NCBI GenBank assembly: GCA_050288105.1
Contig: JBNKDE010000013.1
Location: 3,519 to 67,518 of the forward strand
DNA: 64,000 nucleotides
Reading direction: 5' to 3'
Source of the DNA: Gammaproteobacteria bacterium
GTDB taxonomy: Bacteria > Pseudomonadota > Gammaproteobacteria > GCA-001735895
This document shows positions 4,012 through 45,273 of this stretch, in pieces. The position numbers and the translations under genes are program-made. The notes under the pieces were generated by a model, which had not been told where the DNA came from, searched no databases, and saw nothing but the letters and a program-made list of their open reading frames with translations. How positions within the stretch are numbered: the first letter of the stretch is position 1; every line of letters begins with the position of its first letter.

Positions 4012-6600
4012 TTACTGATTTGATTCCAGGAAGTCCTGTGCAAAGCGTTGCAGTACGCCACCAGCGGCATAGACATGGACTTCTTCCGCGGTATCCAGAC
4101 GGCAGGTAACCGGAATTTCTACGCGTTCACCATTGGCGCGGTTCATCACCACGGTGAGATCGGCACGTGGTGCGATGTCACCAATCACGTCATAGGTTTC
4201 GGTGCCATCGATGTTATACGTATGGCGATTTTCACCCGCTTTAAATTCCAGTGGCAGCACACCCATCCCGACCAGGTTGGTGCGATGGATACGTTCGAAG
4301 CCTTCAGCGACGATCGCTTCAACACCGGCCAGTCTGACCCCTTTGGCAGCCCAGTCACGTGAAGAGCCCTGACCATAATCTGCACCCGCGATAATGATCA
4401 ATGGCTGTTTACGTTGCATATAGGTTTCAATCGCTTCCCACATGCGGCTTTCGGTGCCTTCGGGTTCGATGCGTGCGAGTGAACCCTGTTTAATCTCGCC
4501 GTTCTCGTCACGACACATTTCATTCAGCAACTTCGGATTGGCGAAGGTGGCGCGCTGAGCAGTCAGGTGGTCACCGCGATGGGTCGCATAGGAATTAAAA
4601 TCTTCTTCCGGCAGGCCCATCTTATGCAGGTAGGCACCCGCAGCACTGTTTAACATGATCGCATTAGATGGAGACAGATGATCGGTCGTAATGTTGTCAC
4701 CCAGCACGGCCAGTGGGCGCATGCCTTTCATGGTGCGTTCACCCGCCAGTGCGCCTTCCCAGTAGGGTGGGCGGCGGATATAGGTACTTTGTGGACGCCA
4801 GTCGTAGAGTGGGCTCTTGGCTTCTTCCACCTGACCCAGGTCGAACATCGGATCATAGATTTGATGGAATTGTTCGGGTTTGACACTGCTGGCAACAATG
4901 GCGTCGATCTCTTCATCGCTGGGCCAGATGTCTTTCAGGGTAATGGGGTTGCCATCTTTGTCAGTGCCCAGTGCATCCTGTTCGATGTCGAAACGAATGG
5001 TGCCTGCAATCGCATAAGCAACCACCAGTGGCGGCGAAGCGAGGAATGCCTGTTTGGCGTAAGGATGGATACGGCCGTCAAAGTTACGATTCCCGGATAA
5101 CACGGCGGTGGCATATAGATCGCGATCGATGATTTCCTGCTGGATCTTTGGATCGAGTGCGCCGCTCATGCCGTTACAGGTGGTACAGGCGTAGGCGACG
5201 ATGCCAAAGCCCAGTTTTTCCATCTCGGATAACAGGCCAGCTTCTTCCAGGTAAAGCTTTGCTACCTTGGAGCCAGGCGCGAACGAGGATTTGACCCAGG
5301 GCTTGCGCAGTAGTCCCAGCTCATTGGCCTTACGCGCTACCAGACCGGCGGCGACGACATTGCGTGGGTTACTGGTATTCGTACAGCTGGTGATGGCAGC
5401 GATGATGACTGCGCCATCGGGTAATTCACCTTCCTTCTCTTCCCATTTACCGGCAATGCCTCGAGACTCAAGATCAGAAGTAGGCAGGCGTCGGTGTGGA
5501 TTAGATGGCCCTGCCATGTTGCGGCATACCGAAGATAAATCGAATTCCAGTACGCGCTCGTATTCAACATTGGCCAGGTCATCCGCCCACAGGCCAGTCA
5601 GTTTGGCGTATTGTTCAACCAGTGCGACCTGCTCGGGTTCGCGTCCGGTCAGCTTCAGGTAATCGATGGTTTGCTCGTCGATATAAAACAGGCCCGCGGA
5701 AGCGCCAAACTCGGGCGTCATGTTAGAGATGGTCGCACGGTCACCAATGGTCAGGTTAGCGGCGCCTTCACCGAAGAATTCCAGATAAGCAGAAACAACC
5801 CTCTCGTTACGCAGGAATTCGGTCAGAGCCAGTACGATATCGGTGGCAGTAATGCCGGGCTGGCGTTTACCCACCAGTTTGACGCCGATGATATCGGGCA
5901 GGCGCATCATCGAAGGACGACCCAGCATCACGGTTTCGGCTTCCAGACCGCCCACACCAATCGCAATAACACCCAACGCATCGACATGCGGGGTATGGCT
6001 GTCGGTGCCGACGCAGGTATCCGGATAAGCTACGCCGTCGCGGGTTTGTACCACCGGAGACATCTTTTCCAGGTTGATCTGGTGCATGATGCCGTTACCG
6101 GCCGGGATCACATCGACATTCTTGAATGCGGTTTTGGTCCATTCGATAAAATGAAAGCGGTCTTCGTTACGGCGATCTTCAATCGCGCGATTCTTTTCGA
6201 AGGCATCCGCCTCAAAGCCTGCGTGCTCCACCGCCAGCGAATGGTCGACGATCAACTGGGTGGGGACGACCGGGTTTACCTCGGCAGGGTCACCACCTTT
6301 GTCCGCGATTGCATCGCGCAGACCGGCCAGGTCCACCAGTGCAGTCTGGCCGAGGATGTCATGACAAACCACACGCGCCGGATACCAGGGGAAATCCAGG
6401 TCACGCTTGCGTTCGATCAGCTGCTTGAGCGAATCGGTCAGTGCCTCGGGCTCACAACGACGCACCAGCTGTTCAGCCAGCACGCGCGAAGTGTAGGGCA
6501 GTGTTGCATAGGCACCGGGCTGAATGTCTTCAATTGCGGCGCGCGTATCAAAATAATCGAGCTGGGTTTCGGGCAATGGCTTGCGGTATTGGGTATTCAT
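4012..6600 (-). CDS. acnD: Fe-S-dependent 2-methylcitrate dehydratase AcnD (aconitase family)
   Basis: 862 aa aconitase-family protein sitting in the classic AcnD+PrpF arrangement. Confidence 0.9.
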   Translation of the reverse strand: MNTQYRKPLPETQLDYFDTRAAIEDIQPGAYATLPYTSRVLAEQLVRRCEPEALTDSLKQLIERKRDLDFPWYPARVVCHDILGQTALVDLAGLRDAIADKGGDPAEVNPVVPTQLIVDHSLAVEHAGFEADAFEKNRAIEDRRNEDRFHFIEWTKTAFKNVDVIPAGNGIMHQINLEKMSPVVQTRDGVAYPDTCVGTDSHTPHVDALGVIAIGVGGLEAETVMLGRPSMMRLPDIIGVKLVGKRQPGITATDIVLALTEFLRNERVVSAYLEFFGEGAANLTIGDRATISNMTPEFGASAGLFYIDEQTIDYLKLTGREPEQVALVEQYAKLTGLWADDLANVEYERVLEFDLSSVCRNMAGPSNPHRRLPTSDLESRGIAGKWEEKEGELPDGAVIIAAITSCTNTSNPRNVVAAGLVARKANELGLLRKPWVKSSFAPGSKVAKLYLEEAGLLSEMEKLGFGIVAYACTTCNGMSGALDPKIQQEIIDRDLYATAVLSGNRNFDGRIHPYAKQAFLASPPLVVAYAIAGTIRFDIEQDALGTDKDGNPITLKDIWPSDEEIDAIVASSVKPEQFHQIYDPMFDLGQVEEAKSPLYDWRPQSTYIRRPPYWEGALAGERTMKGMRPLAVLGDNITTDHLSPSNAIMLNSAAGAYLHKMGLPEEDFNSYATHRGDHLTAQRATFANPKLLNEMCRDENGEIKQGSLARIEPEGTESRMWEAIETYMQRKQPLIIIAGADYGQGSSRDWAAKGVRLAGVEAIVAEGFERIHRTNLVGMGVLPLEFKAGENRHTYNIDGTETYDVIGDIAPRADLTVVMNRANGERVEIPVTCRLDTAEEVHVYAAGGVLQRFAQDFLESNQ

Positions 6601-7295: not shown

Positions 7296-7315
7296 TGAGA
7301 TATCTCCTCGTTTAA

Positions 7316-7377
7316 TTGTCGACAATATAAGCAAATTTAGTCTCAAGTTCTACCCTTAAAGCCGATATTGTCGACAA
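7316..7377. promoter_or_regulatory. Two perfect TTGTCGACAA palindromes (7316-7325, 7368-7377) upstream of the GntR gene; candidate operator
   Basis: Both palindromes are visible in the sequence just upstream of the regulator RBS. Function is inferred. Confidence 0.45.
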
Positions 7378-7442
7378 AAGTTAAGAATGATTCTTTATAT
7401 ATTGAGAATTTTTTGCGTTTATTAGTAGGTTTTAAAAGAAAT

Positions 7443-7576
7443 TAACCACAGAGGACACCGAGAACACGGAGAATGATTAGATAGGTTATCAGGCGCTACT
7501 TAAAATTTTATTTATCTAAGCGACTCAGATTTAGAAAAACCAGAATACCTCTGTGCTCTCCGTGTCCTCTGTGGTT
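7443..7576. repeat. Heptamer-TIR repeat R2
   Basis: Left end taaccacagaggacaccgagaacacggag, right end cctctgtgctctccgtgtcctctgtggtt. Confidence 0.85.
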
Positions 7577-7619
7577 AAATTCTGTTAACGATGGAAAAAA
7601 TGTATCCGCAAAAGAATCT

Positions 7620-8081
7620 ATGAAAATTATTGAAGCTGATTATGCAGATCTGCCACAAGTCGCTGACCTGTTTCGTGAATATCAGCAGTTAATCGGTGTT
7701 GACCTGTGTTTTCAGGGCTTTGAAGAAGAACTGGCCAGCCTGCCGGGCAAGTATGCGCCACCAGCGGGAGCTATTTTCATTGCCATTGATAACAGCGAAT
7801 TGGTTGGTTGTGTGGCGATACGGCCCATCGATCAGCAACAGGCGGAGTTAAAGCGGCTTTATGTGAAACCGGCCTGGCACGGTCAGGGGATTGGCAAGCA
7901 GTTGTTTGAAACCGCCATGTCACGCGCGCAATCGATTGGGTATGGGAGTATTGTGCTGGATACGTTGGAGTCAATGCGCAGCGCTCGGGGGTTGTATCAG
8001 GGGTATGGATTTCGGGAGATTGAAGGGTATTATCATAATCCGGATTCGACGGCTAAGTTTTATCGGTATGATTTTGGGTGA
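7620..8081 (+). CDS. GNAT family N-acetyltransferase
   Basis: 153 aa with an acetyl-CoA binding motif (RLYVKPAWHGQGIGKQL). Confidence 0.8.
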   Translation: MKIIEADYADLPQVADLFREYQQLIGVDLCFQGFEEELASLPGKYAPPAGAIFIAIDNSELVGCVAIRPIDQQQAELKRLYVKPAWHGQGIGKQLFETAMSRAQSIGYGSIVLDTLESMRSARGLYQGYGFREIEGYYHNPDSTAKFYRYDFG

Positions 8082-8180: not shown

Positions 8181-8455
8181 GGTTTCACACGCTTACGCTT
8201 TCCTTGCTTCGTAGCGCCTGACGAGTACGCGTGCGAGCCCCTTTTTTGTTTGGCCAAAAAAGAGGCGCAAAAAAGGCCACCCCACCAAGCCCTTCATCGT
8301 CAAAATAGTGCCCAGATCGCGGTCGGCTCAGACGCGGGTCCAACCGCGCTGAGCCTCAAATGGCATCCCTGCCATTTGCCCCCGATCTGAACACCATTTT
8401 GCCGCGGGCTTGAAAGGGGGAATTAAGAAAAGATTTCAAGCAAAGCTTGAAATCT
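8181..8455 (-). repeat. Structured repeat element E2, copy 1, a relative of E1; ends with perfect hairpin agatttcaagcaaagcttgaaatct at 8431-8455
   Basis: Shares with E1 the module tttcacacgc...gcgtgcgag-cccttttt / aaaaaag...ggc and a ctcag...ctgag hairpin. Homologous to 43481-43780. Confidence 0.7.
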
Positions 8456-8460
8456 TTATT

Positions 8461-8745
8461 GTGTTTTTTTCCGCCCTTATTGAGTGCCGAAAATCGAGTC
8501 ATTTTGTAGGGTCAGCGCACATGGACGTGCGCTGAGGACAGTTGAGCAGGATGCGAATCTGTCCGTGCCCTGCAAAATGGCTTGATTTTCGGGGAGCCGC
8601 AGGCCACTCAATTGGGATGTCCTTTTTTTCGTCTCTTTTTTTGGACAAGCAAAAAAAGGGACTTGCACGCCTTTTAGAAAGATACTACGAAGCAAGGACA
8701 GCAAAGGCGTGTGAAACCATAATCCGGAAAGAACAAGAAAACTGA
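8461..8745 (+). repeat. Structured repeat element E1, copy B, truncated at both ends
   Basis: Roughly 80% identical to copy C and carries compensatory substitutions in its helices. It abuts the GST stop codon. Confidence 0.8.
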
Positions 8746-43480: not shown

Positions 43481-43780
43481 GATTTCACACGCTGAAAACT
43501 TTTCTCGCTCTGTAGTTAAGTCGTGCCTGCGTGCGAGTAACTTTTCAGGCATGAAAAGTCACCAAAAATGCTTTCCCAACAGTCCCTTCTTCCGTCAAAA
43601 GCACAGCCAAATCGCGGTCGGGGCAGACGCGTTCCTGACGCGACTGCCCCTAAATTCGCTTCCCTGCGAATTTACCCCGATTTGACTGCACTTTTGCCGC
43701 GGGTCTGGATGGGGTTTAAAAAACAGAGATTTCAAGCACAGCTTGAAGTCTCAAGAAACTCAAGTTTCAAGATCTGATCC
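43481..43780 (-). repeat. Structured repeat element E2, copy 2; ends with hairpin agatttcaagcacagcttgaagtct at 43727-43751
   Basis: Collinear with 8181-8455: tttcacacgc...gcgtgcgag..., cgtcaaaag...atcgcggtcggGGcagacgcg...cgcgaCTgCCcc, ttttgccgcggg. Confidence 0.7.
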
Positions 43781-43965
43781 ATGCGCCCGTTTTAACCATT
43801 TAATCGTCTGGAGAGTCTTAGACCTTTTATTTCAACGTGTATATGTTCCTGAGACTCTAATAATTCAATAATTTGCCTAAAAAGCGTGGTCCATATTAAG
43901 AAAAACCTGAATAGTTGAAATATGGTAGAATATCGCCATATTAGACCAACTTGGAGGTCTGAATC

Positions 43966-44430
43966 ATGTCGTTATCTGTATATTCTGCTGCACAAAGATT
44001 AGCGGAGAAATCCGGTTGGTCTCTGTCAAATTTAGAGATTCAGAAATTGCTGTACTTGGCGCATATGTTTCATATGGGCGAGCACGAAGAGCCTTTGGTA
44101 AATGAACATTTTGAGGCTTGGGATTACGGCCCAGTTCAACCCGATCTTTATCATAAGCTGAAAATTTACGGCTCTTCTCCAGTGAAACATATTTTCACCC
44201 GCACAAAACCATTCGATGAAGGATCTGAAACGGAAATTATCGACAAAACTGTAGACCAGCTTTCACATCGAGCGGCTGGATGGCTGGTCGCTGCTACGCA
44301 CTGGGACAAAGGCGCGTGGGCTAAATACTATGAGCCTGGCACGAAAGGAATAATTATTCCTAATTCTGAAATCCAACAGGAATATAGAGATAGAGTAGAT
44401 GCACTCAGAAGAAGACAAGCCACCATTTGA
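43966..44430 (+). CDS. Panacea-domain (DUF4065, SocA/PanA-like) putative antitoxin
   Basis: 154 aa. The conserved YLAHMFHMGEHEEPLVNEHFEAWDYGPVQPDLY region matches my recollection of the Panacea family. Preceded by ggagg. Confidence 0.6.
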   Translation: MSLSVYSAAQRLAEKSGWSLSNLEIQKLLYLAHMFHMGEHEEPLVNEHFEAWDYGPVQPDLYHKLKIYGSSPVKHIFTRTKPFDEGSETEIIDKTVDQLSHRAAGWLVAATHWDKGAWAKYYEPGTKGIIIPNSEIQQEYRDRVDALRRRQATI

Positions 44431-44743
44431 TCAACTGGACGATCTTCTTTATGAAGAACCGAGCAAGACAGATCAGCAGATATCTGCCCTTGAAAAGCAA
44501 CTAGAGTACGAACGCGATGCCAGGATGGAAGATCGATTTGTATTTATCGTGATAATAGTCCTTTTATTGGATATCGTTTTCTTTTCTGTTATGCCTACTT
44601 TCGGTGGCCCGCTAGCGCTACTAATCCTGGAACTTATAATTTTGATACCGCTGGCCCGAAAGATGGGAATGGAAGAACTTGCCGCAATATTTCATGGAGT
44701 TGTATCCCGTATGGCTGGAAGAGCAAATGATGCTGATGATTAA
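44399..44743 (+). CDS. Small two-TM membrane protein, candidate toxin partner
   Basis: 114 aa overlapping the upstream gene by 32 nt. Hydrophobic segments FVFIVIIVLLLDIVFFSV and LALLILELIILIPLA. Confidence 0.45.
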   Translation: MHSEEDKPPFDQLDDLLYEEPSKTDQQISALEKQLEYERDARMEDRFVFIVIIVLLLDIVFFSVMPTFGGPLALLILELIILIPLARKMGMEELAAIFHGVVSRMAGRANDADD

Positions 44744-44997: not shown

Positions 44998-45273
44998 ATG
45001 AAATCCTCAGTTGATAAAATACTCAAGAAGCATCCTCAGCTTATCCACTCCGATAATATGAAGGTGACTTCTCATGTACAACGTGCGAGTGGCGAATGGA
45101 TTATTAATACGATCATGATTGAAGATTGCGCAGTCCCGTTTAAATACAAACGCAAAAAACGTTACAAAAATCTCACCGGAGCGAGGGTGAACTTAACCTA
45201 TTACCCACAACTTGAGTCAGTCGCCGGGATTGACTTTGAAACCATGAAGGTGGTCAGGGTCCGTATTTCCTGA
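44998..45273 (+). CDS. Hypothetical protein
   Basis: 91 aa ORF with no recognisable domain. Confidence 0.3.
   Translation: MKSSVDKILKKHPQLIHSDNMKVTSHVQRASGEWIINTIMIEDCAVPFKYKRKKRYKNLTGARVNLTYYPQLESVAGIDFETMKVVRVRIS

Follow-up and report, generated by a model that had tools for sequence, protein, structure and literature searches.

Our results support a reading whereby two overlapping genes in the stretch of gammaproteobacterial DNA analysed here (64,000 nt in length; hereafter the window) form a self-contained toxin–antitoxin operon of the PanAT type (type II), in which the first gene, panA (ORF1), would encode the antitoxin and the second, ORF2, a toxin that depolarises the membrane. We put the probability of this reading at roughly 80%. 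A first-pass annotation of the same DNA had proposed the two genes as a candidate pair of this type, and the proposal is supported by the match of ORF1 to the Panacea domain, by the co-conservation of the two genes, and by the layout that ORF2 has in common with validated membrane PanTs. From the analysis we infer that the ORF2 protein would be toxic, that PanA would neutralise it, and that the two proteins would form a complex. Systems of this type are already known and have been characterised experimentally in relatives; what is new is the partner family, which is abundant, well-defined, unnamed and lacking a database model.

A Panacea gene and its overlapping neighbour

The panA gene lies at 43966..44430 of the window (+ strand, ATG start, 154 aa) and ORF2 at 44399..44743 (+ strand, ATG start, 114 aa), so that they share 32 nt (44399..44430) in different frames and the ORF2 ATG falls within the 3' end of panA, just as the first-pass annotation had described. 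Both genes are also predicted by the public-collection gene finder in contig JBNKCB010000010.1 of assembly GCA_050287525.1. The 154-aa protein had been likened to the Panacea family, and this likeness withstood a search with the Pfam profile: ORF1 matches SocA_Panacea (PF13274) with 60.5 bits (E 3.6e-16), against a gathering cut-off of 25.7 bits, and the match extends over residues 25-118 (nt 44038-44319) and over positions 1-112 of the 113 in the model. ORF1 also matches the PHROG family phrog_1281 (E 7e-34). Its best NCBIfam match is SocA_antitoxin (NF047745) at 92.9 bits, well under the equivalog cut-off of 190, and on this ground we take the predicted antitoxin to be a PanA rather than an orthologue of SocA. 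Since a length of 154 aa leaves no space for the HTH, PAD1 or ZBD accessory domains that some PanAs have, ORF1 is, judged by its sequence, a standalone Panacea protein. In a paired alignment with ORF2-family partners, W52, G55, P56, V57, H112 and W118 are invariant in 23 PanA sequences; G55-P56-V57 make up the GPV motif, on which the function of the V. harveyi PanA depends (Kurata et al. 2022, PMC8832971). An AlphaFold2 model of PanA alone, built from the single sequence, had a pLDDT of 50, which is too low for use, and a sequence search of the PDB returned no relative of either PanA or ORF2.

The signals around the two start codons differ. A Shine–Dalgarno sequence, GGAGG, can be read directly from the sequence at 43953..43957 (+ strand), 8 nt 5' of the panA ATG, whereas the start of ORF2 has no strong Shine–Dalgarno sequence. 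The same asymmetry is seen at related loci, where a match of at least 5 nt precedes panA in 23 of 33 cases and the toxin gene in 3 of 33 (Wilcoxon p = 2e-4). The overlap, too, is a regular feature of the family, being 4-41 nt long in 28 of 33 non-redundant pairs, a count that depends on the start codons that we picked. Because ORF2 starts inside the end of panA and does so without a good ribosome-binding site, translation of the toxin would be coupled to that of panA and would run at a lower level. RNA folding at the ORF2 start is no more stable than in shuffled sequence (z = -0.86).

Directly 5' of panA, a consensus scan found the promoter-like sequence TTGAAA-16 nt-CATATT (43915..43942, + strand). 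It is a pattern match only, and with 4 such sites in the region against 3.9 expected from shuffles, the call of a panA promoter is at the level of chance; an extended -10 element, TGgTAGAAT (43923-43931, + strand), is an alternative. A repeat search of the same upstream DNA turned up three copies of a 7-mer, CCATATT/AATATGG, at 43891-43897 (direct), 43919-43925 (inverted) and 43936-43942 (direct), the last of which overlaps the -10 hexamer of the predicted promoter. The three copies look like an operator, although PanA has no recognisable DNA-binding domain, and no equivalent of the motif was seen at related loci. A different block, GTTCTTGyTTyGTGCTATAAT, is common to several copies of the module in alphaproteobacteria, where it lies about 50-70 nt 5' of panA (L034, about 2470-2500; L053, about 5475-5500; L054, about 5495-5520); it is probably a promoter that moves together with the module. 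Scans for a terminator-like site on the + strand 3' of ORF2, and Rfam and tRNA scans of the DNA surrounding the pair, gave no match.

A family of small two-helix membrane proteins

The charged N-terminus and the two strongly hydrophobic helices noticed in ORF2 at first reading were borne out by counting residues, by hydropathy and by structure prediction. The first 46 residues include 15 acidic and 6 basic ones, and an unbroken hydrophobic block extends over about residues 41-91, with a Kyte–Doolittle peak of 3.12. AlphaFold2, run on the alignment of the ORF2 family, returned helices at residues 23-64, 70-88 and 92-111 (pLDDT 72), with a turn of sequence MPTFGGP parting the hydrophobic block into two helices. 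In the order of the protein, ORF2 (+ strand) thus comprises an acidic tail at residues 1-22, which is variable in our alignment of the family (A1); a conserved membrane-adjacent helix at residues 24-46 (nt 44468-44536), in which D40 and E44 are invariant in the same alignment; TM1 at about residues 47-66 (nt 44537-44596), with a near-invariant D58; TM2 at about residues 70-88 (nt 44606-44662), following the MPTFGGP turn; and, in the AlphaFold2 model, a C-terminal helix at residues 92-111. Conservation in the helix before TM1 falls on I28, L31, Q32, L35, D40, R42, E44 and F47 (A1), the second hydrophobic helix closes with PLARRMGME, and the signature of the family is made up of ERDAR-EDRF, MPTFGGP and PLARRMGME. 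Polar residues are conserved even within the transmembrane helices, namely D58 and an E/Q in TM2. Basic residues stand on both flanks of the hairpin and none in the turn, a distribution that fits a protein whose two termini face the cytoplasm. By the AlphaFold2 model, ORF2 is predicted to be a helical hairpin with a cytoplasmic helix before it and a C-terminal helix after it.

In a word-indexed search, ORF2 had 124 homologues in alpha-, beta- and gamma-proteobacteria, 105-125 aa long and 50-70% identical to it. When 1.84 billion cluster representatives were searched exhaustively with a profile, 636 members of the family were found at E<=1e-3, 282 of them at E<=1e-10. ORF2 is a real gene, far beyond a chance open reading frame. 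Among the models of Pfam, NCBIfam, PADLOC and PHROG none matches ORF2 above threshold, and a Foldseek search of the ORF2 model against viral structures gave no significant match. A tblastn search of phages with ORF2 likewise found nothing, despite the partner in Bordetella phages that the profile HMM detects at 65-101 bits; BLAST results are unreliable for a low-complexity transmembrane protein such as this one. In a subgroup of the family (L039, L042, L048, L051), most of which comes from viral contigs, the C-terminus is lengthened by about 30 residues rich in Pro, Lys and Glu, which brings these proteins to 142-146 aa.

The nearest approach to a described family is to DUF5345 (PF17280), a Pfam domain of unknown function. 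Matches to nearly the whole of this 77-residue model were obtained from 21 of the 55 members of A1 (about 40%), the best at E 7.6e-5, with every score of the family under the gathering cut-off of 27 bits. DUF5345 proteins and the ORF2 family are similar in size and in their two-TM layout, and the match may come from this common architecture alone. A search of the accessible literature found no mention of DUF5345.

Linkage, mobility and decay of the pair

The co-conservation that the first-pass annotation had named as decisive for the downstream ORF was found in loci that were collected without reference to PanA. We retrieved 35 loci through ORF2 alone, 27 from metagenomes and 8 from IMG/VR viral contigs, and in 33 of them panA lies directly upstream on the same strand. 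One of the two exceptions (L024) begins inside the end of panA because the contig ends there; the other (L041) is a decayed locus with a frameshifted toxin gene and only a trace of panA. Conversely, an ORF2-family gene follows immediately downstream in six of eight genome loci that encode a PanA at least 45% identical to that of the window. The two proteins have also diverged in step, with a Mantel r of 0.80 between the pairwise divergences of PanA and partner over 32 pairs, a value that none of 2000 permutations reached.

The genes flanking the pair differ from locus to locus. A Roseobacter prophage carries it in the early region, together with genes for SSB, Rad52 and integrase; another copy stands between haem-uptake genes in a marine bacterium, and another beside alaS; five complete genomes of Bordetella avium phages contain it, with a PanA 39.5% identical to that of the window and a partner scoring 65-101 bits against the family profile, and the pair is carried by the 8 IMG/VR viral contigs. 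In a plasmid search, no PanA above 36% identity was found. The module is mobile, being a solitary islet in the window and residing in prophages and phages elsewhere.

In the window, the stretch that holds the pair has a GC content of 0.42, compared with 0.48 for the window as a whole, and the pair sits between a DUF5062 gene and mntP, with metabolic and transport genes all round and no defence genes adjoining. The first-pass annotation had placed the pair beside an 'E2 repeat' and an orphan ORF; both neighbours are real, but neither moves with the pair. The repeat in question is probably a dispersed intergenic element of about 210 nt, two copies of which, 72-78% identical, lie at 43530-43760 and 8240-8470. 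Both copies terminate in the hairpin TTCAAGC-nnn-GCTTGAA, the copy at 43530-43760 stops at the start of the low-GC stretch with the pair, and a search of Rfam with the repeat gave no match. The orphan ORF (44998-45273, 91 aa) lies downstream of the pair within the same lower-GC stretch, and may therefore have been acquired together with it. Searches of Pfam, NCBIfam, PADLOC and PHROG assigned it to no family, and among all the loci that we fetched it is confined to the genome of the window; the conserved module does not include it.

The way in which copies of the module fall apart is uneven. Intact PanA genes that have lost the partner were found in three states, with the partner absent (L004), frameshifted (L043) or truncated inside TM1 (L044), and both genes have decayed in L041; the frameshifts in L041 and L043 are in metagenomic contigs and could be assembly errors. 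Among the loci inspected, there was none with an intact partner and no PanA. Such an asymmetry would be expected of a partner that does harm when alone.

Several loci depart from the standard arrangement in other ways. The PanA gene without a toxin partner in L004 (4600-5700), whose product is 53% identical to PanA of the window, is flanked by a duplication of the last 17 codons (FTEPRVGYRMARASEPV) of the adjoining histidine-kinase/response-regulator gene, as if it had been inserted with a target duplication, and a second, more distant PanA-like gene (7312-7698) follows 2 kb downstream. In L008 (6-649), a PanA 48% identical to that of the window is partnered by a different two-TM protein of 106 aa, which matches neither the ORF2 family nor the T12 toxin of phage S1249, so that here one toxin seems to have been exchanged for another beside a closely related antitoxin. 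In two Rhodobacterales loci (L009, 5444-6178; L010, 5452-6177), PanAs of 28-33% identity have as their downstream neighbour a soluble, conserved protein of 241-244 aa that has no Pfam match and that we regard as a further candidate PanT family.

Known systems, proposed mechanism and alternatives

The Panacea domain was named by Kurata et al. (2022, PMC8832971), who validated nine PanAT pairs, three of them with transmembrane toxins. The E. coli and Bartonella PanTs of that study have a charged N-terminus and C-terminal TM helices, depolarise the membrane, form pores and admit SYTOX Green, and are neutralised by PanA; the Helicobacter toxin depolarises without pore formation, and neutralisation by the PanAs tested is independent of ClpXP and Lon (PMC8832971). 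For the Bartonella pair, a standalone Panacea protein was found to neutralise PanT(D11) directly by contacting its unstructured N-terminus and the short helix that precedes the TM region, and neutralisation is lost with the PanA substitutions Y56A and H120E (Ernits et al. 2023, PMC10440598). ORF2 has the layout of Bartonella PanT(D11), and among its soluble segments the corresponding helix before TM1 is the best conserved.

The closest known systems are the PanA–PanT pair of E. coli STEC O31 (cluster T3) and that of Bartonella apis/choladocola (cluster T12, NetFlax D11; toxin WP_077993242.1). These validated membrane PanATs and the window pair have in common a standalone Panacea gene in first position, a small partner with a charged N-terminus and two TM helices, adjacent or overlapping genes, and an occurrence in proteobacteria and their phages. 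They differ in that the E. coli PanT, at 182 aa, has an N-terminal region much longer than that of the 114-aa ORF2 protein. For the comparison of sequences, T3 was represented by the PanT of phage PhiR47_1 (annotated as PanT and spaced 22 nt from its antitoxin gene, as in the STEC O31 pair) with 66 relatives, and T12 by a single member, YP_003344835.1 of Aggregatibacter phage S1249. Alignment of the ORF2 family with the E. coli PanT family by hhalign gave a probability of 0.3%, or 6.8% with a broader profile; the ORF2 profile HMM did not match the PhiR47_1 PanT sequence significantly, nor did it match the S1249 toxin, the one T12 member compared. The first-pass annotation had called the toxin partner unrelated to characterised families, and this holds in so far as there is no detectable homology to the T3 family or to the S1249 T12 toxin, although the architecture is the same. 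With no homology detected between the toxins, the analogy stands on the architecture and the shared antitoxin, not on a common descent of the toxins.

Members of the ORF2 family may already be contained in the broad clusters T3 or T12, since the published lists for these clusters span alpha- and betaproteobacteria with overlapping pairs, including Asaia, Sphingomonas and Comamonadaceae (PMC8832971). A comparison of the genera and accessions of the family with the text of the Kurata 2022 supplement gave no link, and all accessions of the family postdate that paper. The Asaia locus was considered as a bridge to the Asaia platycodi entry of T3, and its homologue search returned only three near-identical proteins. 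Two other clusters were rejected as the home of ORF2: T60, where the spacing is likewise -32 nt, is HigB/ParE-like, and T10 is the SocB family.

In our model, transcription would begin just 5' of panA, and PanA would be efficiently translated from its strong Shine–Dalgarno sequence, while the gene layout suggests that only ribosomes arriving from panA would make the ORF2 protein, and less of it. The ORF2 product would form a helical hairpin in the inner membrane, its two ends facing the cytoplasm, and, when free, would presumably oligomerise and then depolarise or permeabilise the membrane, by analogy with the validated membrane PanTs. PanA would neutralise it by direct binding, at a site that may consist of the acidic N-terminal tail and the conserved helix before TM1, by analogy with the Bartonella PanA:PanT(D11) pair. 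The role of the module is most likely, and here we speculate, the stabilisation of the elements that carry it and/or abortive-infection defence.

An extension of the toxin–antitoxin reading, in which the pair is mainly an anti-phage module acting by abortive infection or superinfection exclusion, with PanA as a sensor that releases the toxin on infection, strikes us as possible but less than even in its chances. The carriage of the pair in Bordetella phages, on the IMG/VR viral contigs and in the early region of the Roseobacter prophage is consistent with it; a sensory role has been proposed for Panacea, and phage defence has been shown for the membrane-depolarising RosmerTA (Ernits et al., PMC10440598). 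Against it, the PADLOC models match neither protein, save for a weak match of PanA to a DarG region (E 0.0018), the papers that we read report no phage defence by a PanAT with a membrane toxin, and the window pair is set amid housekeeping genes. Frequent carriage by prophages makes a role in defence testable. Going further along this line, we speculate, with rather little confidence, that the ORF2 family (at least 636 clusters at 50% identity in alpha-, beta- and gamma-proteobacteria and phages) might be a distinct and very widespread class of Panacea-controlled membrane effectors, carried by prophages to abort or exclude other phages, in which PanA would sense infection and release a pore-forming hairpin through the membrane-adjacent helix, possibly with a remote link to DUF5345.

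It is improbable that the Panacea protein has some other function and that ORF2 serves it as a harmless partner in the membrane, for instance as an anchor or a signalling subunit. No homology of the family to the validated toxins compared was detected, the conservation of its TM region exceeds what might be expected for a simple membrane disruptor, and several candidate PanTs were non-toxic in E. coli (Kurata et al., PMC8832971), all of which would suit such a partner; but the two genes form a mobile unit that is found in unrelated contexts, the order with the antitoxin first, the overlap and the Shine–Dalgarno asymmetry are those of a toxin–antitoxin pair, ORF2 is lost while PanA is kept in decayed loci, and the conserved polar residues of the TM helices (D58 and the E/Q of TM2) fit a toxin.

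We consider it very improbable that the pair works in the manner of SocAB of Caulobacter crescentus, a type VI system in which the antitoxin does not sequester the toxin but acts as a proteolytic adaptor that hands it to ClpXP. SocA is itself a Panacea protein, SocA_antitoxin is the best NCBIfam match of ORF1, and the gene order and overlap of SocAB are the same as in the window pair; however, the score of that match falls far below the equivalog cut-off, SocB (cluster T10) is a soluble inhibitor of the DnaN clamp, unlike the predicted membrane hairpin of the window pair, and neutralisation by the PanAs that Kurata et al. tested requires neither ClpXP nor Lon (PMC8832971).

A holin/antiholin-like pair that times phage lysis, which the small size and two TM helices of ORF2 and the location of the Bordetella phage pair about 300 nt from the lysis cassette might bring to mind, can be set aside almost entirely, in that the phage pair is on the strand opposite a cassette in which a holin and a lysozyme are already annotated, most loci, including the window, have no endolysin near the pair, and neither protein matches a PHROGs or Pfam holin family.

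Among small hydrophobic toxins that collapse the membrane potential, RosmerTA RmrT(D5), HokB, GhoT and TisB are counterparts of the toxin proposed here, and RmrT, which is phage-borne, defends against phage. None of the four has a sequence relationship to ORF2, and their antitoxins are unlike PanA, being an ImmA-type protease-domain protein (Rosmer), an RNA (type I) or an RNase (GhoS).

For the window itself, the toxin–antitoxin reading replaces two 'hypothetical proteins' with a probable TA module in a small acquired islet. It leaves knowledge of how PanAT systems work unchanged. PanAT is the main example of one antitoxin domain matched to many unrelated toxins, and the locus adds to it a partner family that is abundant, well delimited and marked by a clear signature in its sequence, and that makes a clean test case of a soluble Panacea domain restraining a membrane toxin.
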